DNA of 34,424 nucleotides, from IMG/VR virus record IMGVR_UViG_3300045988_092413, positions 1 through 34,424 of that record; one strand, written 5' to 3'. The DNA is from a virus. The notes below the pieces were generated by a model. That model saw nothing but the letters and a program-made list of their open reading frames with translations. It was not told the DNA's origin and made no database searches. The translations under genes and the position numbers were made by a program. Below are positions 4,589 to 22,725 of this stretch, piece after piece (within the stretch, counting starts at the first letter, position 1; every line of letters begins with the position of its first letter).

Positions 4589-5560
4589 TCAGCCCCCAAT
4601 CGCGTCGAGGATCGCCTGCGACATCGTCCGCAGCGTGACCGCGTGGCTCATCAGCATCTGGCGCGTCCCGTCATCCATCTGCACCGCGCCCAGCGCCGCG
4701 ACGCTCCCGCCAGCCGAGGCGATCATCGCACCGATGGCAGCGTTGATCGTGCTGATCGGATCAACCGCCTGACCGCCGCCGCGCATCGTGCTGACGTTGG
4801 CTCGCATATCTGCCGCGTCCAGCTCGTCCTCAAGCTGCTCGATGCGCCGCTCATAGGCCGCCCGCTCACTGTCCGCCAGCGTCGTGTTGTTTTCGGCGGC
4901 TTGTAGCTGGTCTTTCAGCTTTTCGACCTCCGCAGTAAGCGCTTTCACCTTGGTGTCGTCTCCTGCATCTAACTTGTCCTGACTTTTCAGTGCACCAATT
5001 TCAGCCGTCTTTTGCAGGATAGTCTTCTGCGCCCAGGCTCTGTATCTATCATGGTCTTTTTGCAGTTTGTCTCTCGATTTGTCCTTTTCCCGGGCTTCGC
5101 CGCGCAGGCGCTCAACCTCCTTAGTCTTTTCCGCGGCCTTGTCGATCAGCGCGTTGCGCTCCTTTTTAACCTCGGCCAGCTCGCGGCGGTACTGCGCGAC
5201 AGCCTCCGTTACCTCGCGGCTCGTCGCGTTCTCCGCGTCGATGCGCGCGGCGAAGGCTTCGCGTTCTTCCGCTGGGATGCGGATCAGCGCGTTGATCTTG
5301 CTGTCGTCCAGCTCCAGCAGCGGGCTGTCCTGCGCCAGCTCTCGCGCCTGCCGCATCGCAAGCTGTACGCCGCGCTCGTTCAGCCCGCTGTGCGTGGTCG
5401 CCCACGCCGTCCACTCGCCATGGGGCACAACGCCCTCATCCTTGGCCTGGTTGAGCAGGTTGCCGATCTGCCACATAGACAGAGCGATGTTTTTTTTGCA
5501 TTGCTCAAGATTCGTTTCGATGTACGCCCGACGGACGTTCACACTGATCTCTGTGCTCAT
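4589..5560 (-). CDS. DUF3102-like protein with long coiled-coil
   Basis: N-terminal IGNLLNQAKDEGVVPHGEWTAWA matches the PHGEW..W signature of DUF3102. The central region is rich in E/K/R heptads. RBS AAAGGAGAA. Confidence 0.65.
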   Translation of the reverse strand: MSTEISVNVRRAYIETNLEQCKKNIALSMWQIGNLLNQAKDEGVVPHGEWTAWATTHSGLNERGVQLAMRQARELAQDSPLLELDDSKINALIRIPAEEREAFAARIDAENATSREVTEAVAQYRRELAEVKKERNALIDKAAEKTKEVERLRGEAREKDKSRDKLQKDHDRYRAWAQKTILQKTAEIGALKSQDKLDAGDDTKVKALTAEVEKLKDQLQAAENNTTLADSERAAYERRIEQLEDELDAADMRANVSTMRGGGQAVDPISTINAAIGAMIASAGGSVAALGAVQMDDGTRQMLMSHAVTLRTMSQAILDAIGG

Positions 5561-5573
5561 TTTTTTCTCCTTT

Positions 5574-6410
5574 TTACAATGTTTTCAATCTTGCCTGTTT
5601 GCGGAAGCAAGCGGGAATTCGTTCCGCGTCGCAGACCACCGTATTGTCGCAGACCACCGTATTGTCGCAGACCACCGTATTGCCGCAGACCACCGTATTG
5701 CCGCAGACCACCGTATTGCCGCAGACCACAGCATTGCCGCAGACCACAGCATTGCCGCAGACCCGCGTATTGCCGCAGACCACCGTATTGCCGCAGCCCC
5801 ACGCATCGCCGTAGGCCCACGCACTGTTGTAGACCACCGCATCGCCGTAGACCTGCGCACTGTTGTAGACCACCGCATCGCCGTAGACCTGCGCATTGCC
5901 GTAGACCCACGCATTGCTGGAAACCAACGCATTGCCGTAGACCCGCGCATTGCCGTAGACCTGCGCCTTGTCGTAGACCCGCGCCTTGCCGTAGACCTGC
6001 GCATTGCCGTAGACCTGCGCCTTGTCGTAGACCCGCGCATTGCCGTAGACCTGCGCATTGCCGTAGACCTGCGCCTTGTCGTAGACCCGCGCCTTGCCGT
6101 AGACCTGCGCATTGCCGCAAACCCGCGCATTGCCGTAAACCCGCGCATTGTCGGAAACCCGCGCATTGTCGGAAACCTGCGCATTGTCGGAAACCTGCGC
6201 ATCGCCGTAGACCCACGCATCGCCGTAGACCCACGCATTGCTGGAAACCCACGCATTGCCGTCATGGCTGAGATTTTTGTCTTTTTCAATCCATCCGCCA
6301 AGGTCGCCTTTTTTGACGCAGTGCGTCGGGATGTCTACCAGTGCCCGGATGCGGCGGAGCGTATACCCACACCACACTTTGTTTTCCCCTGTAAACTCAA
6401 ATTTTTTCAC
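5574..6410 (-). CDS. Hexapeptide-repeat (left-handed beta-helix type) protein, 35 uninterrupted repeats
   Basis: GTG start 6410 with RBS GGAGGGA. 51-aa N-terminal domain, then NAxVYG-type hexapeptides x35, ending in a CGNTVV/CDNTVV run. The repeats keep all other frames open, which explains four overlapping track ORFs. Confidence 0.8.
   Translation of the reverse strand: MKKFEFTGENKVWCGYTLRRIRALVDIPTHCVKKGDLGGWIEKDKNLSHDGNAWVSSNAWVYGDAWVYGDAQVSDNAQVSDNARVSDNARVYGNARVCGNAQVYGKARVYDKAQVYGNAQVYGNARVYDKAQVYGNAQVYGKARVYDKAQVYGNARVYGNALVSSNAWVYGNAQVYGDAVVYNSAQVYGDAVVYNSAWAYGDAWGCGNTVVCGNTRVCGNAVVCGNAVVCGNTVVCGNTVVCGNTVVCDNTVVCDNTVVCDAERIPACFRKQARLKTL
5628..6257. repeat. 18-bp coding tandem repeat (x35) with 54-bp higher-order units
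   Basis: Examples: gaccaccgtattgccgca x3, gaccacagcattgccgca x2, and a recurring gcattgccgtagacctgcgccttgtcgtagacccgc block. Confidence 0.9.
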
Positions 6411-6426
6411 CCGTTATCCCTCCATC

Positions 6427-9408
6427 TCACGTAAACGGCAGCGGCTCATTATCTACCGGGGTAAACCCTTCGGCGGGCGCGCTGTCCTCCTGCGTCGTGC
6501 CTGTGCCATCGATGCGCGCGCGGTCAATCCAGAGGAGCTTGAGCGTCCTGTCCTTGATCCGCTTGTTGCGCAGCGGCGTGGGTCGTCCGCGATCCATGCC
6601 AGGCATACACATGCCCATCTCCATCATCTGGCGGCGAACAGCCGTCGCGCTCATCGCAAGGCTGCTTTCTCGGTCCTTGAGGTTGCGGCGCACGCACTGA
6701 TCGATGGCCTCCGCGTCGAAATAGTAAAAATCGGCGTCCCGCCAGCCGACGACCGGCCGGTTGGCGTAGTCCCTGCGCCCGTCCACCTGCGGCGTCGGGC
6801 TGGTGTCGGCCAGATCGACGTAGGCCGCGGCCTGCGTGACGATCAGCGAGCGGATCACGCTGACGTAGACGTGCGCCGGGGTCATGTCCGCGATGTCCTC
6901 GCCCTGGCGGCCGATGTTTTCGGCGATGCCTGCCAGCGTCTTGGCGTACAGAGCGTCGATCTCCGGCGCGCTCATTGCGCCGACCGCGCCCAGCCAGTCC
7001 AGCATCATCCGGCAGCCCATCGTCAAAAAGGCTGCGCTCTCTTTGAGGCGGGCAAAGCGCGGGTCGATGTCCATCTTTTCGGCTTCGCGCATCGCGTCGG
7101 CCATCCGCTCCTCCAACTCGTCGCCCAGACTGTCGTATCGCTCCATCAGCCACTTGATGTAGCTCCGCATCCCCGCGCGATACGCGCCGCCACGCTGTAG
7201 CCTTGCGTATGGTTCCAGCGCGTCCGTCGTCTTGGCGATTTCGCCGCGCTCGACGTGGATGACGTACAGGCGCAGCGTGCGCCCCTCGTTGATCTCCGGC
7301 AGGATTTCGCCCGTCATGGTGATGGTACTGCGCACCGGACGCCCCTTGATGGTCTGCTTGTCCGCGCTCTGCCGGTTTCGCGCCGCGCGGTCGGAAGCCG
7401 CGCTGATGAGGTTGTTGGCGACGCGGTTCAGCTCGTCGCTCTCCCTCCTTGTCTTGGTTTGGAAAAAGTCGTCGCACGTAAAGAGCGTGTCCTTGCAGTA
7501 ATAGGGCGCGTCTGATGTCCAGTTGGCGGTCGAGCGGAAATTCGCGGGCATCTGCTTGGCGTGAAAATCCCCAAACATCGACTGGATGTACCCCTGCAAT
7601 GTGCTCTTAAAGCTGCCGCTCGCGCCGACGAGGAAAACCACATAGCCCGGCGTTCGTCCGCTCTGCACCATCGTGCTGTACAGCGGCCCGAGAAACGCCT
7701 GCGCCAGCAGCGGCATCACAATCCGCGCGTCAAATCCCTTTGCCAGCGCCGCCACCGCCTGCGCGCCGCCCTGCTCGATCTCATCCTCCGTCTTGCCCTT
7801 GATCTCCGGCAGGCGCAGGTGATAGTGCTGGCTGGCGTTGACCAGCTCCACGCTCACATCGTCCGCGCCAATCGCGCCGTCGTGATACATGTAGATCAGC
7901 CGCTCGCCGATGTGCTTGAAGCCGGTATAGCCGTAGATTGTCCGATCTTTCGCCCCCTTCTGGCCGCCGCGCAGCAGCGCGTCCTTGACATATCCGGCGG
8001 TCAGGCCGCCGGGGTAGATGTTGCCGTATGCTTTCCACACCTTCGCGGGCCATTTCATCGCCAAAAACTCATCGTTTTTAACGTCCGCATCCGGCAGGCT
8101 TCGCCCGCTCGGCGTTCTCGCCGCGACGATCCACTCCGTGTCCTGCGTCATGCCGTCGTCGCGGGTGATCGTCTCCTTGAGCTCCGGCACAAAGTCGCAG
8201 AGCGGTTTTGCCCAGGCGGCCTTTCCGTGTCCCATGATCCGGCACAAGCGCCCGTTTTCGATGGCGTAGTCGTGCAGCCCCATGTAGTGGACAAAGCGGT
8301 CGTCATCCCCGCCGTCGTCTCCCCCGCCTCCCCGAGGGAAAACCGAATTCGCATTCGGTTTTCTCTCGCTTTCGGCAGGTTTCGACGCGGCCTTTTTGGC
8401 TTTTGCCTCGCCCATGTCGAGCACCTTACCCTGCCGCACATACGGCACCGCCTTGTCCAGCAGACCGGCGAAGGTCTTGCGGATCGCCTCGCGTTTCCAC
8501 CCGCGACCGGCCTGCATCTCGTGCGCCCAGTCGGTAAAATCGCCTTTGGCAAAGCGCTCTTGCTCCTCAGTCGTCAGATAATCGACCAGGCGCAGCGTCG
8601 CAAGCTCGCCGACTTTGCCGATCAACTGCTCGCAGACATACGCGCAGAGTTTTTCGCCCGCGTCGTCGTTGTCCGGGATGTAGATGACGCGCCTCGCGCC
8701 GCTGAGCGCCTCGGTGTAGGCGGGCAGCCACTTGCCATCCAGCCGCCCCTTGCCCGCGCCGTATGCGCTGGACACCGCGCAAAAGCCGAGCGCCGCAAGG
8801 TTGTTCGCGTCCTTTTCGCCCTCGACGATCAGGATGGTTTCGCCCTGCGCCTTGGCCGCCAGCATCTCCGGCAGCCGGTAGAGCAGATCATGCCACAGGT
8901 CGCCGACGTAGAGCTTGCCGTCTTCCCCGTAGCTCTGAAAAGCAAAGGTCTTTTTTCGCTCGCCGTTTTTGTCGTACCCCTCGTACCGCGCCTTGAGCTT
9001 TTTGATCTTGCCCTCCGCGTCCTTGTACTCGTAGATGCGCGTCAGCTCGTAGTCGATGTCTTTGATCTTCCACCGATGGCCGACGGCAAAAGGCCGCCGC
9101 GCCAGCTTGGGCGGCTCGGCCTTGCGCTCCGGCTTTTTCCGGGCATACCGTTCCGGCGGTTCGCCCGTCATCGCGTCCACCGCCACATCTTGCAGCGTGT
9201 AGCCCAGCGCTTCCGCAACGTCCTTGCGGTCTGCGCCGCACGCGTGGCATTTCATCACGGTCTGCCCGTCGTCCCCGATATAGCAGTGCAGGCTTGGGTC
9301 GTGGTCGGCATGACAGGGGCAGATCGCCCAAAAACCGCCCGGCTTATCGCTGCGCTTACGATCATCCACGCTGAGCAGATCGCGCCAAGCATCCAGCCTC
9401 ATCCCCAT
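6427..9408 (-). CDS. Bifunctional DNA primase / helicase (zinc finger + TOPRIM + P-loop NTPase)
   Basis: CPCHADHDPSLHCY...CHACGA zinc motif. TOPRIM ILIVEGEKDANNL and IYIPDNDDAGEK. C-terminal Walker A FLVGASGSFKST. 993 aa. Confidence 0.9.
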   Translation of the reverse strand: MGMRLDAWRDLLSVDDRKRSDKPGGFWAICPCHADHDPSLHCYIGDDGQTVMKCHACGADRKDVAEALGYTLQDVAVDAMTGEPPERYARKKPERKAEPPKLARRPFAVGHRWKIKDIDYELTRIYEYKDAEGKIKKLKARYEGYDKNGERKKTFAFQSYGEDGKLYVGDLWHDLLYRLPEMLAAKAQGETILIVEGEKDANNLAALGFCAVSSAYGAGKGRLDGKWLPAYTEALSGARRVIYIPDNDDAGEKLCAYVCEQLIGKVGELATLRLVDYLTTEEQERFAKGDFTDWAHEMQAGRGWKREAIRKTFAGLLDKAVPYVRQGKVLDMGEAKAKKAASKPAESERKPNANSVFPRGGGGDDGGDDDRFVHYMGLHDYAIENGRLCRIMGHGKAAWAKPLCDFVPELKETITRDDGMTQDTEWIVAARTPSGRSLPDADVKNDEFLAMKWPAKVWKAYGNIYPGGLTAGYVKDALLRGGQKGAKDRTIYGYTGFKHIGERLIYMYHDGAIGADDVSVELVNASQHYHLRLPEIKGKTEDEIEQGGAQAVAALAKGFDARIVMPLLAQAFLGPLYSTMVQSGRTPGYVVFLVGASGSFKSTLQGYIQSMFGDFHAKQMPANFRSTANWTSDAPYYCKDTLFTCDDFFQTKTRRESDELNRVANNLISAASDRAARNRQSADKQTIKGRPVRSTITMTGEILPEINEGRTLRLYVIHVERGEIAKTTDALEPYARLQRGGAYRAGMRSYIKWLMERYDSLGDELEERMADAMREAEKMDIDPRFARLKESAAFLTMGCRMMLDWLGAVGAMSAPEIDALYAKTLAGIAENIGRQGEDIADMTPAHVYVSVIRSLIVTQAAAYVDLADTSPTPQVDGRRDYANRPVVGWRDADFYYFDAEAIDQCVRRNLKDRESSLAMSATAVRRQMMEMGMCMPGMDRGRPTPLRNKRIKDRTLKLLWIDRARIDGTGTTQEDSAPAEGFTPVDNEPLPFT
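8339..8364 (-). repeat. 26-nt hairpin element, copy A (inside the primase linker coding region)
   Basis: The minus strand reads agaaaaccgaatgcgaattcggtttt, identical to the plus strand at 12438-12463. 10-bp perfect stem aaaaccgaat/attcggtttt with loop gcga. Confidence 0.95.
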
Positions 9409-9437
9409 CCGTCACACCGTCCTTTTGTCCTCTTTGG

Positions 9438-9644
9438 TCACAGCTCCACATGCAGGCACTCGCGCGCCGCGGCTTTCACGGCCTCGCGCCCCTCGTCGGT
9501 CGTCTGCATCGTCAGCATCACGTCCGCGATGGCGTAGTCCATCGTCGCGTCAGGGATTTCCCGCATCGTCGCGCTCAACAGCTTTCCGCCGCCGTTGCCG
9601 TGCTTATCAGCTCGGCTGTACCGTGCCGCCGTCATCACCTGCAT
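9438..9644 (-). CDS. Hypothetical small protein
   Basis: ATG 9644 preceded by GGGAGGTG. 68 aa. No recognisable domain. Confidence 0.45.
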   Translation of the reverse strand: MQVMTAARYSRADKHGNGGGKLLSATMREIPDATMDYAIADVMLTMQTTDEGREAVKAAARECLHVEL

Positions 9645-9870
9645 CCGTCTCACCTCCCTTTGCCCTCATCGGGATCACGTCGAGCCGCAGCCGGAAGTCG
9701 GTGATCCGATCCGCCTTGTATATCCGCTGCGCGCCGCAAGCCTGACAACCGACGACGGCCTGCCATCCCGGCCGCACCGTCCCGGTCTCCGTCCTCGTCT
9801 GGATCGCGTCATAAGCCACCGACTCCTGACCGCCGCACTTTGCGCAACGGCCGCACCTGATCTCGACCAC
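9607..9870 (-). CDS. Hypothetical 4-Cys zinc-ribbon protein
   Basis: GTG 9870 preceded by AGAGGAGCGGAG. CGRCAKCG ... CQACG. Overlaps the preceding gene by about 60 nt. Confidence 0.45.
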   Translation of the reverse strand: MVEIRCGRCAKCGGQESVAYDAIQTRTETGTVRPGWQAVVGCQACGAQRIYKADRITDFRLRLDVIPMRAKGGETDAGDDGGTVQPS

Positions 9871-10177
9871 GTTCTCCGCTCCTCTCGTTGACCGCGCGCA
9901 CAAATTCGTCACGCGATCCGCCCGTCCTCATATACACCCAGCCGCAGCTTGCGTTGTTGCACTCCGCCCTGCGGATCACAGCCGGGCCGAATCGGCTCGC
10001 CATCAGCACCCGCTCGCGGGCGATCACCGTGCCGCCGCAGTGCGGGCAGGGCTTAAAGCGCGCCGCGCGTATGCCGCGCTCCCGCCATTGCTCCGGCTCG
10101 TAATCCATCCGGATAGATGGCTGGTCATGCCGCCACGTCGCAAGCCCGTCTCCGTCAGTGTACGGCACCGTTGTCAT
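9809..10177 (-). CDS. Lar-family-like (restriction alleviation type) zinc-ribbon protein
   Basis: KPCPHCGG...AECNNASCGW...EFVRAVNER resembles the Lar family pattern (CPFCGG ... C..C ... aWN.R). Start placed at ATG 10177. The track N-terminus overlaps the better-supported gene 10155..10409. Confidence 0.5.
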   Translation of the reverse strand: MTTVPYTDGDGLATWRHDQPSIRMDYEPEQWRERGIRAARFKPCPHCGGTVIARERVLMASRFGPAVIRRAECNNASCGWVYMRTGGSRDEFVRAVNERSGERGRDQVRPLRKVRRSGVGGL

Positions 10178-10409
10178 CTCCCTCAAAGGGCATTTCGTTC
10201 TGCGCATGCCGCGCGATGATCGCCTCGACAAGCGCCCGCTCAAGCTGATCGGCAATGTCGTCCTGTCCCTCGTAGTCCCCGGCCATGGTCTGGATCGCGT
10301 CCACACACAGGCAGGCCAGCTCGTCGAGCAGCTCGTCCGTGGTGCCGGAAAATCTGCCGCTGATGCGGATGCTTTCATCTGCGTCGCGCGTCACATCTGC
10401 CCGTATCAT
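10155..10409 (-). CDS. Hypothetical acidic small protein
   Basis: 84 aa. ATGA overlap with the cro-like stop. No recognisable domain. Confidence 0.5.
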   Translation of the reverse strand: MIRADVTRDADESIRISGRFSGTTDELLDELACLCVDAIQTMAGDYEGQDDIADQLERALVEAIIARHAQNEMPFEGDDNGAVH

Positions 10410-10684
10410 TCAAAGCCCTCCAGATTGTCTTCGTCGGTCGTCGGTTCTTCCGTCTGGAGCGCCGCATCTTCCTGCGGCGCGTCCATCTCGGGGAAAAGCG
10501 CGTCGATGCTCACGCCCAAGGCGCGCGCCATCTTCGGGAGCTTCTCAAGAGTCTTTCCTCGCGTTCCATTTGCCAGTCTTGCAATCGTCACAAGTGTAAG
10601 CCCAGACTTTTCTGCAAGCTCATTCATGGTCATGTTTTTTTCGCGCAAGGTCTTTTTCAGCCTATCCGCAAATCCGTTTTCCAT
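10406..10684 (-). CDS. Cro-like XRE-family HTH regulator
   Basis: MENGFADRLKKTLREKNMTMNELAEKSGLTLVTIARLANG is an HTH_3 type motif. ATG 10684 lies 6 nt after GAGGTG. Divergent from the cI-like gene. Confidence 0.8.
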   Translation of the reverse strand: MENGFADRLKKTLREKNMTMNELAEKSGLTLVTIARLANGTRGKTLEKLPKMARALGVSIDALFPEMDAPQEDAALQTEEPTTDEDNLEGFE

Positions 10685-10701
10685 TATTTTCACCTCGTGC
10701 G

Positions 10702-10852
10702 TGCCATTTTGTCACTTACTCGCGTTACAGCTCTATTATATTTGCCGTTTTGGTACATGTCAAGTACCTTAAAAAAATTTTTTGCCAATTTGGCACACCA
10801 AAAGGATTTTACCGTTTCGGCAAGTATTATATTATAAAGTACCATTTCGGCA
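10702..10852. promoter_or_regulatory. Five 13-bp dyad operators, consensus TRCCRTTTYGGYA, in the cro/cI intergenic region
   Basis: 10702 tgccattttgtca; 10743 tgccgttttggta; 10783 tgccaatttggca; 10810 taccgtttcggca; 10840 taccatttcggca. Confidence 0.75.
10735..10763 (-). promoter_or_regulatory. Consensus sigma-A/sigma-70 promoter for the early (cro-like) operon
   Basis: The minus strand reads TTGACA-17 nt-TATAAT (-35 at 10758-10763, -10 at 10735-10740). Operator O2 lies exactly in the spacer. Confidence 0.75.
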
Positions 10853-10872
10853 AGACTCAAGGAGGTGTTTTC

Positions 10873-11229
10873 ATGCTTGGTACACTTGGCGACAGACTCC
10901 GCGCGATACGCGAGGATCACGACGTGATGCAAAAAGACCTTGCGGCCGAGTTCGGGATTACTCATAGCGCATTAAGCCGCTATGAGCAGAATAAGCGCGA
11001 GCCACCCGTTGATTTCATCGTAGCATTTTGCCACTATTTTAACGTCACATCTGATTTCCTGTTTGGCATGTCCGACGATTATCGCCCACCCGTGAACGTC
11101 AGTATTCCACCGACTCTTTTATCCCGCGATCCCTATGCCGATTTATCTGCCGAGCATCGAGCAACGCTTGATGCTATGGCTGATGTATTCCGTCAGCAGG
11201 AGGCTGCGCAAGGACAAAAAGAGGCATGA
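10873..11229 (+). CDS. cI-like XRE-family repressor (short, no peptidase domain)
   Basis: ATG 10873 after AAGGAGGTG. LRAIREDHDVMQKDLAAEFGITHSALSRYEQNKREP is an HTH_3 motif. 118 aa. Confidence 0.8.
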   Translation: MLGTLGDRLRAIREDHDVMQKDLAAEFGITHSALSRYEQNKREPPVDFIVAFCHYFNVTSDFLFGMSDDYRPPVNVSIPPTLLSRDPYADLSAEHRATLDAMADVFRQQEAAQGQKEA

Positions 11230-11252
11230 TCTTGTTTTTCGGCACAAAAAAA

Positions 11253-11272
11253 GCGCCGCCCGAAGGTGACGC
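11253..11272 (-). terminator. Intrinsic terminator after the membrane-protein gene
   Basis: The minus strand reads GCGTCACC-TTCG-GGCGGCGC (one mismatch) followed by TTTTTTT. Confidence 0.5.
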
Positions 11273-11292
11273 TTGGTGAAGTTGTACGCGGA

Positions 11293-11715
11293 TCAGTTGC
11301 GGCTGATCTCTTTCGCCGCGCGAAGGGCTGCCTCCACGTCGATGCCGGTATTCACCGGCTCCTGCTTGGGCCAGTTCGCCGGATCGTCATGGGTCATCGG
11401 CTTGGCCTCAGTCTTTTTCTCCGAAACCGACTGCACGGCGATCTTCTCCGGCAGCTTGATCTTGCCGATCGCTTCGCCGTTGGCATACAGCAGACTGATG
11501 ATGCTTTCCATCCCATCAAAGAGCCAGCGCGCCAGCAGGGCTACACAGGTAAGCATTGCGCCCTGAAAAGCCGCATTGTCCATATGGTTCAGATCGCTGT
11601 AAATCGTCAGCATGATAAGCAGCACCGCGATAATCGTCGCGAAGATCTTCGCGTGCCGCACGCCTGCCGTCATCTTCTTCTCCACGTCTACATTGGTTAA
11701 ATTCGATTTCCTCAT
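11293..11715 (-). CDS. Hypothetical membrane protein in the lysogeny module (2 predicted TM helices)
   Basis: RBS GGAGGAG 7 nt before the ATG. Hydrophobic stretches IFATIIAVLLIMLTIY and AMLTCVALLARWLF. Has its own promoter and terminator. Confidence 0.6.
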   Translation of the reverse strand: MRKSNLTNVDVEKKMTAGVRHAKIFATIIAVLLIMLTIYSDLNHMDNAAFQGAMLTCVALLARWLFDGMESIISLLYANGEAIGKIKLPEKIAVQSVSEKKTEAKPMTHDDPANWPKQEPVNTGIDVEAALRAAKEISRN

Positions 11716-11745
11716 GGTCTTTCTCCTCCGTTATCGTTTTTGTCC

Positions 11746-11774
11746 ATTATAGCGCCCATTCTACTCAAATGCAA
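11746..11774 (-). promoter_or_regulatory. Promoter for 11293..11715
   Basis: The minus strand reads TTGCAT-17 nt-TATAAT. The first operator of the array starts 10 bp upstream of the -35. Confidence 0.55.
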
Positions 11775-11783
11775 TCCACTTTA

Positions 11784-12022
11784 TACCGTTTCGGCATGTA
11801 TTTTTAACAAAGTGTTATTCCATTTCGGTAAATTCTACCGTTTCGGCAATCAATTTTAACAGTTTGTTTTGCCGTTTTGGTCGATTTATACCATTATGGC
11901 AAGCATTTTTAACAGTCTGTTATACCATTTCGGTATACTTTTTACCATTTTGTTAATGCGTTTAATGATTTGTTATACCGTTTCGGCAAGCATTTTTTAA
12001 CATTTTGTTTACCAAAACGGCA
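11784..12022. repeat. Array of nine operator-type 13-bp palindromes organised in tandem units of about 52 bp
   Basis: Sites at 11784, 11818, 11836, 11870, 11889, 11923, 11943, 11976 and 12010, with the same consensus as the cro/cI operators. Each unit also carries a CATTTTTAACA-like box. Confidence 0.85.
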
Positions 12023-12033
12023 AAAAATCGCCA

Positions 12034-12400
12034 TGTTACGCTTTCGTGTTACGATTTTTGCCCCAATGTTACGTATTTTTTCCCAAAATCGTAACACGGT
12101 TTTTGCTAGGCCACGCCTAGGTTTTTCGGGGGTGTGTTACGATGTTACGTATTTTTGCGGGATATAGGGCCCATATACACACACGCAACAAAACGCATCG
12201 CAAAAAAATGCGCAAAAAATCATCTCGCATTGAGGCCGCGAAACTGGGTACTAGGGGTAAAAATACGTAATTTTCGTAACATTATATATTTTTATAATAA
12301 ATAATACTTAATTATTCTATATATTATTCAATTCCTTGTGTCCCAAAAATGTTACGATTTTTACGTAACACGCCACTCCAAAATCGTAACATTCGTAACA
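12034..12400. repeat. Eleven TGTTACG / CGTAACA repeats flanking an AT-rich core (12283-12335)
   Basis: Direct copies at 12034, 12047, 12067, 12135, 12143 and 12350. Inverted copies at 12090, 12275, 12364, 12385 and 12394. Confidence 0.85.
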
Positions 12401-12408
12401 ACCTGATG

Positions 12409-12438
12409 TTATCCACAATCTTTTCAAACTTATCCACA
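12409..12438 (+). promoter_or_regulatory. Two perfect DnaA-box 9-mers (TTATCCACA) in direct orientation, 21 bp apart
   Basis: 12409-12417 and 12430-12438 both read ttatccaca. The second abuts hairpin copy B. Confidence 0.6.
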
Positions 12439-12463
12439 GAAAACCGAATGCGAATTCGGTTTT
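12438..12463 (+). repeat. 26-nt hairpin element, copy B (immediately upstream of the serine recombinase RBS)
   Basis: agaaaaccgaatgcgaattcggtttt, followed directly by GAGGAGG and the TTG start at 12480. Confidence 0.95.
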
Positions 12464-12479
12464 GAGGAGGTGCTTTGAC

Positions 12480-14096
12480 TTGAAAACCGCTGTCACCTAT
12501 GCCCGCTTTTCCTCCGCGCGCCAGCATGAGACGTCTATCGAGGCGCAGCGCGACGCGATGGCGAAGTGGTGCGCCCAGCGCAGCGTCCGGATCGTGCAGG
12601 AGTACGCAGATCGCGCCGCATCCGGCACCAAGACCGAAGGCCGCGATGACTTTCTCCAGATGTTGGCCGATCTCAAGCAGCGGCGCGTGGACTATGTGCT
12701 CGTCCACAAGTATGATCGCTTCGCCCGCAACGAAAACGACCAGTATTTTTATATGGCCATGATCGAGCAGCGCGGTGCAAAGCTCGTCGCTGTCGCGCAG
12801 GAGTTCGGCGACGGACCGGAGGCGCGCTTTATGGTCGGCGTCATCACGGCCTATAATGCCTTTTATTCGGCGAACCTGTCCGCGGAGTCGAAAAAAGGCA
12901 AAAACATCATCAAGCAGCATGGCAAGCATACCGGCGGCCCCTATCCGATCGGGTATGACCCGGACGGGAAGGGCAACTATATCGTCAACGAGGTTGAGGC
13001 GTATTTTGTCCGCGAGCTGTATAACGCCGTCATCACGCACAGGCGGCTGGATGACGTCGTCGCCGAGATGCGCGATGCCGGTCTGCGCGGCCGCTATGGC
13101 GGCGAGCTGAAAACCGCCAACCTCGCGCGGATCGTCCGCAACCCCGTCTATATGGGCGTGTACCAGCGCACGCTGTCGGATGGCACGCTCGTCCGCCTCG
13201 AAAACCACCACACAGCCATTGTCGATCAAAAAACCTATGAGGAGGCTAACCGCATTATGGACGCACGCGCAAACGCCGGTCGAAACGACCGCAAAATCTA
13301 CCCGTTGAGCGGTATCGCTTACTGCGCCTGCTGTGGCGCAAAGCTGCTCGCCCAGACCACCCGCAAAGACGCCAACCACGAATACACGTCGTATTACTGC
13401 TCTAAGTGCCACGATCTCCACCGCATCCCAGCCAAGGAGCTGGATGGCGCTGCTGTTGACTATCTCAACGCGCTTTTCGCGCCGGAGCGCCGCGCCGAGC
13501 TGGCAAAGGCCGTCGAGGACTACTCCAAGCGCCTGATCTCCTCCGCGGCCTCGCGCCAGCCGTCAGCGTCGCGCGAAATCAAAAAGCTCCAGCGCGAGAT
13601 TGACTCGCTGGCCGCCAACCTTGCCACGGGCGTTTTGTCGCCGGACATGCTGACCATGATCGACCAGCAGATCACCACCCGCCGCGAGCGCATCAAGATT
13701 TTGCAAGAGACCAGCGCCACGCCTGCGCCCGTAACCGCCGCAGATATCGACTCTTTTTTCGCCGACGCCGCCACGCTCTCGCTTGGCATGGACCCGCGCT
13801 ATCTGCGCCAGGTCATGCGCAAGTACATCAAGCGCGTCACCGTCCACACAACGGAGATCGAGATCGTCTCCACCTTTGACGACTGGATCGGTGAGAAACT
13901 CCGCTCCTGCCGAGAAAGCAGCGACGACGGAGGTGCGGACAGACAAAGATTAAGAATCGCATCAAACCCGTGCATGTTCGATGTGATTCTTACACTTTCA
14001 TTTGTCCACCGCGTCCCTCTCCCGGAGCGATACCGTCCATTTCACAAGGAGTTGTACAATTTGCACAGAAACAAAATAAGGCACAGAAAAAAATAA
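12480..14096 (+). CDS. Large serine recombinase (phage integrase)
   Basis: N-terminal AVTYARFSSARQ (catalytic Ser context), resolvase-like domain, recombinase domain, zinc ribbon CACCG...CSKCH, C-terminal coiled-coil. TTG 12480 lies 9 nt after GAGGAGG. The start codon is uncertain. Confidence 0.88.
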   Translation: MKTAVTYARFSSARQHETSIEAQRDAMAKWCAQRSVRIVQEYADRAASGTKTEGRDDFLQMLADLKQRRVDYVLVHKYDRFARNENDQYFYMAMIEQRGAKLVAVAQEFGDGPEARFMVGVITAYNAFYSANLSAESKKGKNIIKQHGKHTGGPYPIGYDPDGKGNYIVNEVEAYFVRELYNAVITHRRLDDVVAEMRDAGLRGRYGGELKTANLARIVRNPVYMGVYQRTLSDGTLVRLENHHTAIVDQKTYEEANRIMDARANAGRNDRKIYPLSGIAYCACCGAKLLAQTTRKDANHEYTSYYCSKCHDLHRIPAKELDGAAVDYLNALFAPERRAELAKAVEDYSKRLISSAASRQPSASREIKKLQREIDSLAANLATGVLSPDMLTMIDQQITTRRERIKILQETSATPAPVTAADIDSFFADAATLSLGMDPRYLRQVMRKYIKRVTVHTTEIEIVSTFDDWIGEKLRSCRESSDDGGADRQRLRIASNPCMFDVILTLSFVHRVPLPERYRPFHKELYNLHRNKIRHRKK

Positions 14097-14276
14097 AAAA
14101 TCCGACATTTCAAGGAAAATTTCTCTGCCGTGTAGCGCTTCGGTGCTGATTCAGGCCGTTATTTAATGCAAATATGGGGGAGGGTACCCCTCCCATCGAA
14201 TCTTTTGTGCAGTTTTGCCAATGCACTCGTGGGAAACCCTGTCGCTGCCGCTAGGCGGCAAACCCGCATAAAAAAG

Positions 14277-14314: not shown

Positions 14315-14758
14315 TCACTTGGCAATGGCACGCATATATCGCGCGACCTTGTGCGGCCTGGCGTCCTTGTCGTCGATAAACGCCCGCGCCATCTTGCCGT
14401 AAAAATCCGGCGTGTTGTTCCCCGCGGCCGAAATGACTGGTCCATAATCCGACCAGATCATATTGAGAGCGACAAAAAATGCAATCATCTGATCGTCTGG
14501 CACACCGAGCTTATGCCCCAGCTCCGTCGCCTCGGCGTATGTCCAGCGCCCGCCATGCGGTCTGGATGTGTCGGCGTTGTCCATGCGATCCACCCATGCC
14601 TGCGCCTGCTCCATCGTGATCACCTCGCCGCCCTCGCACTCCTTATCGAGCGCGTCCAATGCGATGGACATCAGCGCAAAATCGCGGACGTTGCCAAGCG
14701 TCTGCGGACACTGCATGATCTGCTCCCTGGCCTCTCTGATAGCCTCAGCTGTCCACAT
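14315..14758 (-). CDS. Hypothetical protein
   Basis: 147 aa. RBS AGGAGGGA 5 nt before the ATG. No recognised domain. Confidence 0.55.
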   Translation of the reverse strand: MWTAEAIREAREQIMQCPQTLGNVRDFALMSIALDALDKECEGGEVITMEQAQAWVDRMDNADTSRPHGGRWTYAEATELGHKLGVPDDQMIAFFVALNMIWSDYGPVISAAGNNTPDFYGKMARAFIDDKDARPHKVARYMRAIAK

Positions 14759-16063: not shown

Positions 16064-16113
16064 GGTTTCTTCCTCCTGTCGATCGGGTTGTTTTCTTTGT
16101 TCCTTACAAGTAT

Positions 16114-16142
16114 ATTATAAAACAGTTAGCCTTATTTGTCAA
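16114..16142 (-). promoter_or_regulatory. Promoter cassette P1 (TTGACA-17-TATAAT)
   Basis: The plus strand has tgtcaa at 16137-16142 and attata at 16114-16119. Homologous to P2 and P3. Confidence 0.75.
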
Positions 16143-16182
16143 TCATATCATAAAACATTTTTAAAAAATATGAACAAATAAA

Positions 16183-16212
16183 AGAGGCGTGTATCCTCTG
16201 ACACACGCCTCT
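16183..16212 (-). terminator. Intrinsic terminator after 16214..16591
   Basis: 10-bp perfect stem agaggcgtgt/acacgcctct, with T-runs on both sides. Confidence 0.75.
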
Positions 16213-16591: not shown

Positions 16592-16630
16592 TTTTTTGTT
16601 TCCTCCTTAGGTTTTTCCTTTTACGCACTT

Positions 16631-16659
16631 ATTATAAGGCATTTTGCTTTATTTGTCAA
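16631..16659 (-). promoter_or_regulatory. Promoter cassette P2 (TTGACA-17-TATAAT)
   Basis: The plus strand has tgtcaa at 16654-16659 and attata at 16631-16636. Confidence 0.8.
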
Positions 16660-16701
16660 TAGCATTTTAAAGCATTTTTAAACTTTTTTGAAACAAAAAA
16701 T

Positions 16702-16727: not shown

Positions 16728-17465
16728 TTATTGATCCGGATCGTCCGGCTTGCGCCTGTGTGCGGGCGTGATGGGCAGAGACAGCAGCCCCCAGCCCTTA
16801 TAGTGATACAAAGATCCCTTGCACGATGGGGCACCTCGCATGCTTGTCGCGATCTTTTTTAAACCGCTTGCTATACGTTTTGCGGCGATATCTCGCTCCT
16901 CTTCCGGAGTTTGCGGCTCAAAGAGCCGGTAATTATTCCGCGCCCAGTCGAGCAGATTGGTGCACGGCACTTGATTGCCGCTCGGATCGACCAGCACCCA
17001 GATTTTGCTTTCTCGGTTTTGCGGTCCACGTTGCCCCTCCGGGATTGCAAGCGCCGCTTGCACGCCGCGCGGTTGCAGCTCGTCCATCTGCGCCTTAACA
17101 GCAGCGTCTTCCGCGCGTCGCCTTTTCGCGTCCTCTCCCCACTTGCGTGGTTTGTCATGTGCCGACTTCGCCGCGCGGAGACGACGGCAAGCGTCCGAGC
17201 ACGTCACGCGATTGTCTGACCGATACGAGTCAAACAGTCTGCCGCAGATCACGCATGCTTGTGTGATCTTGCCCACCGCCTTACATCCGCACGACGTCGT
17301 CTTACCAGAGATCAGATTGCTCGCATAGTACGACTTAACGCTGCCACATCGCAGGCACTCCGCATCGCATCGGGTCTTAGACGACGCTTCCGGCCGCCTC
17401 CAAATCCGCAAAACCTTGAGATCGCCGAACACGTCGCCGACCTGCATGTTGAGTTTGCGAGGCAT
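16728..17465 (-). CDS. Hypothetical Cys-rich (zinc-finger-like) protein with an uncharacterised C-terminal domain
   Basis: ATG 17465 lies 8 nt after GGGAGG. CDAECLRCGS...SCGCK...CVICG...CSDAC. The C-terminus ends ...YHYKGWGLL. Confidence 0.55.
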   Translation of the reverse strand: MPRKLNMQVGDVFGDLKVLRIWRRPEASSKTRCDAECLRCGSVKSYYASNLISGKTTSCGCKAVGKITQACVICGRLFDSYRSDNRVTCSDACRRLRAAKSAHDKPRKWGEDAKRRRAEDAAVKAQMDELQPRGVQAALAIPEGQRGPQNRESKIWVLVDPSGNQVPCTNLLDWARNNYRLFEPQTPEEERDIAAKRIASGLKKIATSMRGAPSCKGSLYHYKGWGLLSLPITPAHRRKPDDPDQ

Positions 17466-17467
17466 GC

Positions 17468-17950
17468 TCAACGCCTCCCAAACTCGCCGCCGACAAGGAT
17501 GCGCGGAAGCCCTTTATACATAATGGCTTCTTCGCCGCGGCCATCAACCCAGCGCTGGCCCCTGATCTCATCAATGGTCAACGGCTGCTCGCCCTGCCAG
17601 TCCGCGAGGGTAAACTGCACACCCTCAGACTGGATCACGGCGATGATCCCGACATCCGGATGATCGACGAGATAAAATATCCCATATTCGTCGATCACTG
17701 TCTCGGACACGATCGGGAGCGCCAGCGTGCATCCAGTCTCCCAATCGTAGACGGCCAGCTTCGGCGCATCGCCGCGCAGATAGGCCGCGGTCACACCCAG
17801 CGCATCCGCCAGAGCAGGGAGCAGCTTTGGGCCGAGGTTTCGCTGCCCGCTCTCGTAGCTGTTGAGCGTCTGCGCCGACACGCCCAATTTATCGGCCAGC
17901 TCTTTCTGGCCCAACCCGCGCAGGATACGCAGATTTTTGATTCCCATCAT
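17468..17950 (-). CDS. XRE-family HTH protein fused to an uncharacterised C-terminal domain
   Basis: LRGLGQKELADKLGVSAQTLNSYESGQRN is an HTH_3 motif. About 95 aa follow with no S24 peptidase motif. ATGA overlap with the upstream gene. Confidence 0.65.
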   Translation of the reverse strand: MMGIKNLRILRGLGQKELADKLGVSAQTLNSYESGQRNLGPKLLPALADALGVTAAYLRGDAPKLAVYDWETGCTLALPIVSETVIDEYGIFYLVDHPDVGIIAVIQSEGVQFTLADWQGEQPLTIDEIRGQRWVDGRGEEAIMYKGLPRILVGGEFGRR

Positions 17951-18721: not shown

Positions 18722-18775
18722 TGCTTTTTCCTCCTCGCCCTTTAGGCTTTTTGTTTTCTTGTTCCTTATGCGCCT

Positions 18776-18804
18776 ACTATAAGGCATTTTGTTTTATTTG
18801 TCAA
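18776..18804 (-). promoter_or_regulatory. Promoter cassette P3 (TTGACA-17-TATAGT)
   Basis: The plus strand has tgtcaa at 18799-18804 and actata at 18776-18781. About 60 bp are nearly identical to P2. Confidence 0.8.
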
Positions 18805-18850
18805 TAGCATTTTAAAACATTTTTAAACTTTTTTTTGAAACAAAAAAAAT

Positions 18851-21243: not shown

Positions 21244-22725
21244 TCACACCCCCTTAACGCCGTAAATTCTGACCGGGATACACGCACGTTGATCGTCGCT
21301 TGTGCTGTCTGTCAATCGTATAGCCTTCCCAAAATGATTTGTGTCTAGAGTGAAATCTCGGAATTGGCCACCAGCGCCATGTTCAGTATCTGTGAGGAAA
21401 TAAAATCTTAACCTATCCCCTTTTTTTGCCACGGCAGAAAACGAACGCACGTTTGAGTTGACATATGCAAGAAAATAAATCATGCAATAATTGTAGGCTT
21501 TCCAGTCGAATGTTACGGTCTGTTCGTCGAACGAGCTGTTAGGTGAGGCGTTTTCCCACAATACTTCCGTCGAATACTTTTTCTCAATTTCGTCCTTTAG
21601 CTGACTAAGCTCAGCTCCCGTCGCTTTCGCATCTGCGGCTTTTCTCGCCATTGTCAGCGTCGCGTCCGTGCCGGAGAGCGCCCCAACGTCCGCCGCTGTC
21701 GGCATCCAGTCGTCAGCACGCGCCCCAACGTCCGCTGCGGTCAACGTCACTTTCCCCGCCTCGTCCGGCGCTTTACCGTTGATCGTCAGGCTGCCCAGAC
21801 TCCCCGTGTCGCCGCGCGGGATCGTCAGCTCGATCACCGGCGCTTCCGCCGTGCCGGTCTGCTTGACGCTCGCCGCCGTTCCCGGCTCGCCGGTCTTGAC
21901 TTGCACTGTGATCTGAGGGGTTGCGCCGGGGTCGCCTTTATCGCCCTTGGGCAGGCCGAGCACGATATTGTAGTGCCCGTCCACCTCAGTCAGCTTTGCC
22001 GTCGGTGCAGCGCCCGCCGCAAGGCCAGTCGCTGTGATGGTCATGTCGTCGATCTTGGTGGCAGCTTCCGTGGCAGTAGTAGCCGCGGCTTTCGCCGCGG
22101 AAGCGCCATCTGTCGCCTGCCCAGCCGCGTTTCTCGCGTCGCTCGCCGCGCCATTAGCGGCCTCGATAGCCGACGCGACTTTCTTCAGCGCATCGCCGAC
22201 CGATGCAGCAGCACCCTCTGCCTTTTCCGCGGCCGCATCGCATCGCCCGATAGACGCCATAATCTCGTCGAGATTGGGGATGCGCTTACCCTCATCCAGG
22301 ATGTCGTCCCCAGTCGGATCGATCGCCATGACGGCCATGCGCGCGACCGCAACACTCGCTCCGTCCCTGGTCACGCGGATCGTGCAACCGACCGGGCCGG
22401 GGATATTGGCCGCATCCCTCGGCAAAACTGCTTTTATCTCACCGCCGCTCTCTACCGTCGCCTCGCTATATGTAGTGCCGCCGCTCTCTACCGTCGCCTC
22501 GCTATATGTAGTGCCGCCGCTCCCGTCCTCAGACAAGGCGCGCGCACAGTAGAGCGATGCGGTCGCTCCGGTCAAGTCTACCGGCACGCCGTTTTTTTTG
22601 ATCGTCACGATCCAGACCAGCGCCTGCACATCGCCCTTGACGATCGGCTGATCCCGCACGAGGACGGGGTTGCTCTGCGTCAGCTCGATCGTCTGGCGTT
22701 GCGTAAATCCCTCCATTTTTGCCAT
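21244..22725 (-). CDS. Tail fibre / receptor-binding protein with BppU-like N-terminal domain
   Basis: N-terminal Ig-like baseplate-upper-protein pattern, Ala-rich coiled-coil, short collagen-like PKGDKGDPG, and a distinct AT-richer C-terminal domain. Confidence 0.75.
   Translation of the reverse strand: MAKMEGFTQRQTIELTQSNPVLVRDQPIVKGDVQALVWIVTIKKNGVPVDLTGATASLYCARALSEDGSGGTTYSEATVESGGTTYSEATVESGGEIKAVLPRDAANIPGPVGCTIRVTRDGASVAVARMAVMAIDPTGDDILDEGKRIPNLDEIMASIGRCDAAAEKAEGAAASVGDALKKVASAIEAANGAASDARNAAGQATDGASAAKAAATTATEAATKIDDMTITATGLAAGAAPTAKLTEVDGHYNIVLGLPKGDKGDPGATPQITVQVKTGEPGTAASVKQTGTAEAPVIELTIPRGDTGSLGSLTINGKAPDEAGKVTLTAADVGARADDWMPTAADVGALSGTDATLTMARKAADAKATGAELSQLKDEIEKKYSTEVLWENASPNSSFDEQTVTFDWKAYNYCMIYFLAYVNSNVRSFSAVAKKGDRLRFYFLTDTEHGAGGQFRDFTLDTNHFGKAIRLTDSTSDDQRACIPVRIYGVKGV
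22443..22522. repeat. 36-bp in-frame tandem duplication (2.2 copies) inside the fibre N-terminal domain
   Basis: cgccgctctctaccgtcgcctcgctatatgtagtgc occurs twice in a row, encoding GGTTYSEATVES twice. Confidence 0.9.

Follow-up and report, generated by a model that had tools for sequence, protein, structure and literature searches.

A lineage-specific 24-nt palindrome repeated in the integrase, early and replication modules of uncultivated gut Clostridia phages

The virus record IMGVR_UViG_3300045988_092413 of IMG/VR (34,424 nt, analysed over its full length and hereafter called the window) is the genome of a temperate cos phage from a group of uncultivated gut Clostridia phages. It carries a 26-nt hairpin sequence twice, in inverted orientation: once inside the gene of a primase-initiator protein (Pri-Rep), and once against the ribosome-binding site (RBS) of an integrase gene (int) for a large serine recombinase. 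We have little doubt that this pair represents the window's two members of a lineage-specific family of 24-nt palindromes. Such palindromes are found in 2-7 copies per genome in the integrase, early and replication parts, with one stem type in each genome, and the constraint on them acts at the level of the nucleic acid.

The 26-mer, AGAAAACCGAATGCGAATTCGGTTTT, occurs exactly at two places in the window:

8339-8364, minus strand: copy A; core 8339-8362, read in frame as K-P-N-A-N-S-V-F inside the Pri-Rep linker
12438-12463, plus strand: copy B; core 12440-12463, abutting the RBS of int

The inverted identity is 26/26, and the pair is the top-ranking inverted repeat in a repeat scan of the window; no chance match is expected from 100 dinucleotide shuffles. 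The sequence folds into a 10-bp stem with the loop GCGA. An earlier note, made from the DNA letters alone, had described this identity, stem and loop and had held that chance could not account for them, and it was right on each of these points. The palindromic core is 24 nt long (AAAACCGAAT-GCGA-ATTCGGTTTT) and consists of AAAA, a GC-rich 16-nt dyad and TTTT. The complete genome holds only these two copies, neither in a structural gene. A scan with Rfam 15 at the gathering threshold gave no match anywhere in the window, and megablast of 6400-14200 against GenBank phages gave none either.

Pri-Rep homologues at 31-68% identity were traced to their contigs. All of these distant-relative contigs carry units of AAAA, a 16-nt dyad and TTTT, with stems that are specific to the lineage. 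Four stem types were distinguished (L numbers designate the loci compared):

T1: AAAACCGAATGC then GAATTCGGTTTT; window group, L071, L072, L078
T2: AAAACCGTC(G/C/T)GC then GC(A/G)GACGGTTTT; L079, L082, L207
T3: AAAAGCGCC(A/G)GC then G(A/C)(T/C)GGCGCTTTT; L081, L083, L206
T4: AAAACCGCCAGC then GCTGGCGGCTTT; L080

Copies number 2-7 per genome, with seven in L207, five in L206, four in L079 and three in L081. With the strict pattern, 212 kb of related loci yield 26 copies, and neither 4.25 Mb of shuffles nor three unrelated phage loci yield any. Over 18 distinct copies, 94% of the stem cells are paired. Four of the ten pairs vary on both arms and none on one arm only, and the observed score was reached by 0/500 shuffles. 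Positions A1-A4, C6, G7, C18, G19 and the T tract show no or almost no variation (the pairs being C6-G19 and G7-C18), and positions 5, 8, 9 and 10 change together with their partners on the opposite arm. Paired differences at 8/17 and 10/15 are found even between copies of one genome. Otherwise copies within a genome share the stem type: both L071 copies have T10>A and both L072 copies T10>C, and the copy in the primase linker always matches the other copies of its own genome and not the linker copies found elsewhere. The 4-nt centre is not always shared by the copies of a genome: the centres differ in L002, L004, L160 and L071.

The placement of the copies follows a limited number of patterns. 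They lie against the int RBS in T1, T3 and T4 genomes, and in the Pri-Rep linker in T1, T2 and T3 genomes, where the position is retained across primases that are 36-97% identical. Further copies are found in early operons, between genes, in the order stop codon, hairpin, Shine-Dalgarno (SD) sequence. Others are read in frame in the C-terminal tails of small proteins (cro-like, HNH and others), 13-15 codons ahead of the stop, and a Lar-like protein carries the element in its N-terminal tail. In L072, L081 and L083 a copy separates the early/middle genes from the HNH-TerS-TerL block. In the sense orientation the base after TTTT is G, often as GAG, in ∼80% of copies, with no mirror of this feature upstream. 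The Pri-Rep linker peptides are KPNxNSVF, KTVxADGF and KSAxAxAF, and the element is absent from the primases P0003-P0007 (63-66% identical). Because the peptide changes with the frame, the constraint falls on the nucleic acid, through pairing and the A and T tracts, and not on the peptide. A functional peptide motif was rejected for the same reason.

In the early operon of L207, two inserts (7283-7621 and 8265-8913, minus strand) carry one gene without assigned function and a RelE/HTH toxin-antitoxin pair. The inserts are bracketed by palindrome copies (7034/7674 and 8206/8986), two of which share 15 identical downstream bases, and the repeats may mark cassette boundaries in this locus.

The T1 arms were also sought in 185,579 representative genomes, and 57 loci were returned. 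No prophage of this phage was among them, and many of the loci are terminators, in Flavobacteriia and other groups. Apart from unrelated repeats in other phyla, the T1 sequence does not occur as a multi-copy repeat in these genomes, including Oscillospiraceae. One Gemmatimonadetes metagenome-assembled genome (MAG; L014-L070 range, for example SKJY01 contigs) has ∼20 copies of AAAACCGAATC(C/T)(A/G)GATTCGGTTTT, which is an unrelated REP-like repeat sharing the T1 arms by chance. A metagenome scan gave at least 120 loci, with three relatives among the matches listed; another repeat, AAAACCGAAAC(T/C)(G/A)GTTTCGGTTTT, gave at least 31 matches. In Oscillospiraceae / Ca. Scatomorpha MAGs, exact T1 arms followed by GAGAGGAG occur at L037 306-329 and L039 7347-7370. 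This single hairpin, situated in a spacer within a cluster of host tRNA genes, was judged a coincidental match, although the MAGs belong to the likely host clade.

Comparison over shorter distances gives a sharper view of what is kept. Close relatives came from IMG/VR metagenome 3300045988 and from three metagenome contigs; eight assemblies cover copy A, with Pri-Rep 90-97% identical, and five of these also cover copy B. The variable columns at copy A among the eight relatives are 0/20 in the arms, 3/4 in the centre, 14/16 in the flanks and 53/192 in the background. The 4-nt centres include GCGA, ACGA, TCGA, TCAA and GCGC. Hypervariability extends 7-8 nt to either side of copy A, and these flanks are enriched for mutual complementarity (24/49 positions, p ∼0.004); in one relative, part of the left arm is duplicated in tandem. 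Neither the arms nor GAGGAGGTGCT vary at copy B, while the downstream int is 97%, 81% or only 63% identical, and the arms are unchanged also against int genes that are 53-61% identical. The alignments thus strongly suggest that the arms are under purifying selection. Conservation of both copies in relatives, which the earlier note had named as a check, holds for the arms at A (eight assemblies) and at B (five), but in L072 the second copy is located elsewhere.

Copy A is situated in the following context:

6427-9408, minus strand: Pri-Rep gene, 993 aa; Zn-ribbon and TOPRIM primase in the N-terminal part, Cch/SaPI-Rep-like self-loading initiator helicase in the C-terminal ∼600 aa
8302-8433, minus strand: DNA of the disordered interdomain linker (aa 326-369, pLDDT below 50), holding copy A; from the AlphaFold model and relatives

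An AlphaFold model of Pri-Rep built on 22 homologues has a mean pLDDT of 80. Searched with Foldseek, its C-terminal ∼600 residues match the SCCmec Cch helicase (5dgk) and the SaPIbov1 Rep initiator-helicase (8tch) with E ∼1e-13 and TM 0.6 on the target, and its N-terminal part matches DnaG/T7 gp4 primase domains. The 993-aa "primase" is, on the predicted fold, a Pri-Rep initiator. Residues 326-369 are the sole long disordered segment of the model and divide the DnaG/T7-gp4-like primase half from the Cch/SaPI-Rep-like ATPase half. Copy A lies in frame within the 993-aa open reading frame (ORF), is translated as ..ERKPNANSVFPRGGGGDD.. and encodes about residues 349-357. The earlier placement of copy A in a linker between the primase and helicase halves was therefore borne out, in a segment predicted to be disordered.

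SaPI Reps are self-loading initiator helicases, whose C-terminal winged helix reads 5-6-nt iterons around an AT-rich region (PMC9371898). The pri and rep genes are separate in most SaPIs and fused in SaPI5, so that their boundary is a known fusion/fission point (PMC9371898). A 44-kb phage in our set (L006, IMGVR_UViG_3300045988_050760) has the primase half alone as a separate short ORF (9319-10400), 95% identical over aa 1-311, which indicates that the pri-rep boundary is a module junction. Homology of L006 to the window stops at window position 8489, 125 nt from the palindrome; the phage is a mosaic, and a rearrangement at the palindrome was rejected. An internal translation start that would give a helicase-only product after copy A was likewise rejected, as no in-frame start codon is reachable from the SD-like GGAGG; the Met downstream of copy A is not conserved among homologues. 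Neither the Pri-Rep profile nor the DUF3102 protein had informative matches in PDB sequence searches, NCBIfam gave no useful names for the proteins searched, and nothing relevant was found in the literature on origins inside primase-helicase genes or on DUF3102. Directly downstream of Pri-Rep, a gene at 5574-6410 (minus strand) contains ∼29 tandem 18-nt repeats at 5540-6343 and encodes a YdcK-type beta-solenoid/bactofilin-like hexapeptide protein. It is 68% identical in L002 and has no match in the other loci compared, including L004 and L005.

Copy B stands between an origin-like block and the start of int:

12464-12482, plus strand: int RBS GAGGAGG (12464-12470) and start codon TTG (12480-12482); from the sequence and relatives
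12480-14096, plus strand: large serine recombinase (Resolvase, Recombinase and Zn_ribbon_recom); from domain matches
12409-12438, plus strand: two TTATCCACA DnaA-box-like motifs directly upstream of copy B; from a motif scan
12035-12400, no strand assigned: SaPI-type origin-like block (context, outside the repeat) with 11 CGTAAC/GTTACG hexamers in both orientations

The most likely start of int is the TTG at 12480, because relatives carry ATG or GTG at the equivalent position. Copy B had been described as ending 1 nt before GAGGAGG; the gap is actually 0 nt. The two DnaA boxes reported upstream are present as perfect TTATCCACA motifs (DnaA-box-like) at 12409-12417 and 12430-12438. The note had also remarked that both copies share the codon phase of their ORFs. 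This is true of the present genome (12480-12438 = 42 nt), but the phase is not conserved in relatives: in four close relatives, 16, 15, 16 and 14 nt separate the palindrome from the start of int, and an in-frame fusion would thus be an accident of this genome.

The window has 19 CGTAAC hexamers, of which 11 cluster at about 12035-12400, in both orientations, around an AT-rich stretch at ∼12277-12326. Every relative has this origin-like layout, each with its own hexamer (GTAACA, CAACCG, GGTACA, CTTACA), and the combination of hexamers and AT-rich DNA matches the Cch/SaPI-Rep fold of the C-terminal half of Pri-Rep. The last iteron is 40 nt from copy B, with the two DnaA-box-like motifs in between. 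Motifs of the form TT[AT]TNCACA are rare in these genomes, and almost all are within 35 nt of a palindrome copy, in two contexts. In T1 genomes (window 12409-12438) they stand beside the int-proximal copy; in T3 genomes (L081 ∼11330; L083 ∼15529) they are 10 nt from the copy upstream of HNH, with a geometry that differs from T1.

As to function, our best single guess, and a tentative one, is that the palindrome forms a hairpin that acts, probably with the help of a factor, as a weak, bidirectional terminator or pause site, attenuating and insulating the transcription of int and the early genes. The 24-mer would fold and act in the RNA as it is being transcribed. The role of copy B would be to restrict and insulate transcription that enters int from the origin and regulatory region. 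Copy A would be a punctuation mark retained at the pri-rep junction that attenuates read-through along the early operon, a role suggested by the status of this boundary as a fusion/fission point (PMC9371898) and by the primase-only gene of L006. The mirrored A tract would allow action in both directions. New copies would arise by copying of an existing one, with gene conversion or template switching homogenising them. Hairpin extrusion, or hairpin-templated strand switching in replication, would leave scrambled and partly self-complementary flanks and loops; we infer strand switching because the flanks are scrambled yet partly complementary and because an arm has been duplicated.

The palindrome appears terminator-like because the T tract is invariant, the GC-rich base of the stem stands beside it, and the upper stem and loop are free to vary. 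Predicted hairpins fold at -13 to -39 kcal/mol, with z down to -5.7. The same A-tract/stem/T-tract shape, with the same arm sequence, is found in typical terminator contexts of unrelated bacteria. Copies lie where such punctuation would be placed, namely before int, between early genes, and between the early/middle genes and HNH-TerS-TerL. The continuation of the T tract as TTTT-GA(G) is confounded by SD sequences and acidic codons.

Several observations weigh against a terminator. The T run is only 4 nt long, a consensus terminator scan (at least 5 T in 8) calls neither copy, and the T runs of the evident terminators in this phage are longer. Transcripts ending within the Pri-Rep ORF, or 13-15 codons short of a stop, would be non-stop mRNAs, which seems costly, where a site acting at the DNA level would be harmless. 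Terminators need not share a sequence within a genome, and concerted evolution demands an extra assumption of copying or conversion. The A tract is invariant like the T tract, even within unidirectional operons. There are no G.U pairs in 180 cells and the sense-strand mismatches are A.C or C.A; this lack of G.U pairs gives no positive sign of selection for a sense-RNA helix. Finally, no Rfam family matches the hairpin.

The main rival of the terminator reading is a dispersed operator or roadblock, which we regard as unlikely, if the least unlikely of the alternatives. A dimeric phage protein would bind the double-stranded 24-bp dyad and block transcription into int and the early/replication operon, and sites and protein would co-evolve. 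This would suit a stem sequence that is specific to the genome and common to its copies, the perfect dyad symmetry including the invariant A and T tracts, the lack of G.U intermediates, the confinement of copies to non-structural modules, and their toleration inside ORFs, where a DNA-level site is free of cost; many sites co-evolving with a repressor also have a published precedent (PMC6550527, PMC9283540). However, no candidate reader was found among cI, cro and the Rep winged helix. The T1 palindrome is unchanged where cI is absent or ∼31% identical and where cro is 30-40% identical, and CI and Cro were rejected as readers since the palindrome is constant across genomes in which they are unrelated. 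The Rep winged helix was rejected because it reads iterons, whose type does not follow that of the palindrome: T1 and T2 genomes share GTAACA iterons, and L206 has the T3 palindrome in common with L081 and L083 but different iterons. Moreover, the paired changes at 8/17 and 10/15 within genomes suggest that pairing matters over base identity, and the copies are not associated with promoters.

A neutral, self-copying mini-palindrome analogous to REP and RPE elements is a more doubtful explanation. It would insert wherever 24 nt are tolerated and be homogenised by conversion, without function. Copy number (2-7) and positions do vary between related genomes, there are in-frame 24-nt insertions in disordered or terminal protein segments, the P0003-P0007 primases lack the element, derived changes are common to both copies in L071 (T10>A) and L072 (T10>C), and the flanks are scrambled, with the partial arm duplication in one relative. 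A functionless element fits poorly with arms under strong purifying selection, with a linker position kept across 36-97% identical primases, or with the restriction to non-structural modules. No target-site duplications or terminal features are seen. Apart from the serine recombinase, the window and those related loci that were examined encode no transposase, of HUH/RAYT type or any other, and T1 is not multi-copy in the representative genomes, Oscillospiraceae among them. The suggestion of the earlier note that the repeat is a small mobile palindromic element is thus upheld as regards a multi-copy family that is homogenised within genomes and resides in frame in tolerant coding regions, but not as regards mobility, for which neither a transposition mechanism nor target duplication was found. 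In its fullest form, and with the same low probability, this idea would make the palindrome the smallest known REP/RPE analogue, self-propagating into spacers and in-frame linkers and tails, homogenised by conversion, mutagenising its own flanks and co-opted as operon punctuation.

Somewhat less probable still is a role as single-stranded DNA hairpins in replication. By analogy with RSF1010 ssiA/ssiB or with the DnaA-box hairpin 'A site', the copies would be priming or helicase-loading signals for Pri-Rep. Copy B is indeed 40 nt from the last iteron of the origin-like block with two DnaA-box-like motifs between, almost every TT[AT]TNCACA in the relatives' loci is at most 35 nt from a copy, in two contexts, and the most conserved location is inside a replication gene. 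That gene joins a primase to a predicted self-loading initiator helicase (PMC9371898), and hypervariable, partly complementary flanks suggest that the hairpin forms in single-stranded DNA. Against this, T2 genomes have no copy near the origin but 4-7 copies ∼500 bp apart in the early operon. Copies are also found in HNH and cro tails, and most are far from the origin, with neither a DnaA box nor AT-rich DNA close by. The two copies do not keep the same orientation to each other in all genomes, and palindrome type is decoupled from iteron type.

The weakest reading, put forward in the earlier note, takes the copies as paired serine-recombinase sites for inversion of the 8.3-12.4 kb segment, which would fuse primase to recombinase, or alternatively takes the dyad as an attP-like site. 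It draws on the inverted 26/26 identity, the large serine recombinase gene beside one copy and the shared codon phase, and we consider it very improbable, with the inversion switch largely refuted: the copies are in direct orientation in L071 (by their asymmetry); the second copy of L072 is upstream of HNH, 11 kb away; L079, L206 and L207 have 4-7 copies and none at int; the central dinucleotides differ between copies in L002, L160 and L071 (CA or TG vs CG), and elsewhere the centre is the palindromic CG and hence has no polarity; the arms stay constant while int falls to 81%, 63% and 53-61% identity and so do not track the enzyme; and the 16/15/16/14 nt spacing breaks the in-frame fusion. Known large-serine-recombinase att sites are about twice the 24-bp length of the palindrome. 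The inverted arrangement was absent from the eight assemblies covering copy A and the five covering copy B, a comparison of assemblies and not of reads. The attP-like dyad is contradicted by the L080 prophage, in which the palindrome is intact 5' of int and non-phage, host-like genes follow beyond the int 3' end, placing the host junction on that side; this prophage carries the T4 variant, and the argument reaches the window through the homologous position of the palindrome. An exact repeat in inverted orientation next to a recombinase gene is not necessarily a site of recombination.

The remaining features of the window describe the phage around the palindromes. A 119-bp terminal direct repeat and a large terminase ORF that crosses the window boundary indicate a circular assembly of ∼34.3 kb. 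Nearly all genes are on the minus strand, in the order cro-like helix-turn-helix (HTH) gene (10693-10406), small early genes, Pri-Rep (9408-6427), the beta-solenoid repeat protein, DUF3102, HNH, TerS and TerL, followed by portal, protease, capsid, tape measure, tail and lysis genes and a moron-like region. The plus strand carries a cI-like HTH gene (∼10750-11229) and the large serine recombinase (12480-14096), and a consensus promoter, TTGACA-17-TATAAT, is present between cI and cro.

Positions 14134-14142, after the stop of int (14096) and before a gene at 14315-14758, are probably a cos site. In at least six relatives, linear contigs have their ends at the bases equivalent to 14133 and ∼14143, and several of them run straight into the Illumina adapter AGATCGGAAGAGC. 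The ∼9 nt between contig ends, CGAAGCGCT, are present only in circular or read-through assemblies; their absence from linear assemblies suggests 3' overhangs that were removed in end repair. The coincidence of contig ends near int was considered as an attP and rejected, since the ends enter adapters and the ∼9 nt are missing, as for physical cos ends. The cos terminus is ∼11.6 kb from HNH-TerS-TerL and beside the attP location that the L080 prophage would suggest.

Other repeats were noted as well. Five TTATACCGTTTCGGCA-type repeats occur at 10807-10828 and 11780-12022, four of them with a ∼52-nt period upstream of a gene for a 140-aa membrane protein and one in the promoter region between cI and cro. 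They probably serve as operators for CI/Cro, and their core, CCG-N3-CGG, loosely resembles the palindrome arms. A ∼80-nt AT-rich repeat (TTATTTGTCAATAGCATTTTAAA..) has three copies (16104-16183, 16621-16700 and 18766-18845) in the GC-poor stretch that separates the lysis genes from cos; these are probably promoter or regulatory regions of moron-like genes, including an HTH gene (17468-17950) and an HNH-like gene (16728-17471). A perfect 36-bp tandem duplication (22442-22513) lies within a tail-region gene of 493 aa (21244-22725).

Several known systems resemble the palindrome in part. Bidirectional intrinsic terminators and attenuators have in common with it the A tract, the GC-rich stem base, the variable upper stem and loop, and the T tract; it differs from intrinsic terminators in its 4-nt T run followed by GA(G), its single sequence per genome, its many copies inside ORFs and the absence of a scan call. 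The hix/gix sites of invertases and the att sites of large serine recombinases likewise combine dyad symmetry with a neighbouring serine recombinase gene, but the palindrome departs from them in orientation, central dinucleotide, co-variation with the enzyme and site length. REP elements depend on RAYT transposases and reach hundreds of copies, and RPEs are 100-150 bp long and known for in-frame insertion into genes. The palindrome is similar in being a short palindromic repeat that multiplies within a genome and, as for RPEs, resides in frame in genes, but it has 24 nt, 2-7 copies and no transposase, and is not a host repeat. The lambda nutL and nutR boxB sequences are two near-identical hairpins in divergent early units, untranslated and present once per operon; they too are phage-specific hairpins, whereas the palindrome is translated and can occur up to seven times per operon. 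The RSF1010 ssi signals are ∼40-nt asymmetric structures inside oriV. Together with the 'A site' of ABC primosomes they recall the palindrome in having opposite-strand hairpins near an iteron origin, a dedicated primase and, by some copies, DnaA-box-like motifs. The palindrome, in contrast, is a symmetric 24-mer with most copies distant from the origin, and the primase here belongs to the DnaG/TOPRIM type.

The phiC31 CIRs and the P1 C1 operators are dispersed phage sites of the same sort as the stoperators of Cluster A mycobacteriophages. Stoperators are asymmetric sites of 13-14 bp that bind a monomeric repressor and are spread genome-wide (PMC9283540, PMC6550527). They are like the palindrome in their many dispersed copies along phage operons and in a lineage-specific, co-evolving consensus; the palindrome differs as a 24-bp dyad that is restricted to non-structural modules and for which no reader was found. 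SAS and ESAS of Cluster K mycobacteriophages include inverted repeats of unknown function just upstream of the RBS or start of some genes, with genome-specific consensus differences, and ESAS, which go with the 13-bp SAS, are imperfect repeats of 17 bp whose spacer measures 4-13 bp (PMC3203893). Both these and the palindrome are repeated, can abut an RBS and have a genome-specific consensus, but the palindrome is a compact, perfect 24-nt hairpin, and ∼40% of its copies lie within coding regions and not beside an SD. SaPI Rep iteron origins (PMC9371898) are paralleled by the Pri-Rep ORF and by the iterons and AT-rich block beside copy B; the CGTAAC block at 12035-12400 fits this comparison, whereas the palindrome is not an iteron, and the two vary in type independently.

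None of stoperators, SAS/ESAS, T7-type intercistronic hairpins, REP/RPE elements and lambda nut sites matches on all features combined, that is, a compact and perfect 24-nt hairpin in 2-7 copies, in-frame residence in linkers and tails, and homogenisation within genomes. It is unusual that a nucleic-acid element is kept within coding linkers and tails, imposing on them eight residues that depend on the frame, and that concerted evolution within a genome goes along with scrambled immediate flanks. The phages thereby offer a tractable natural system for the accommodation of structure-forming DNA or RNA in ORFs, for hairpin-driven local mutagenesis, and for the insulation of early genes and int beside a SaPI-type origin. 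If the family-level picture holds, the palindrome adds an example to the short list of dispersed, lineage-specific cis-repeats of phages that so far comprises stoperators, SAS/ESAS and CIRs.

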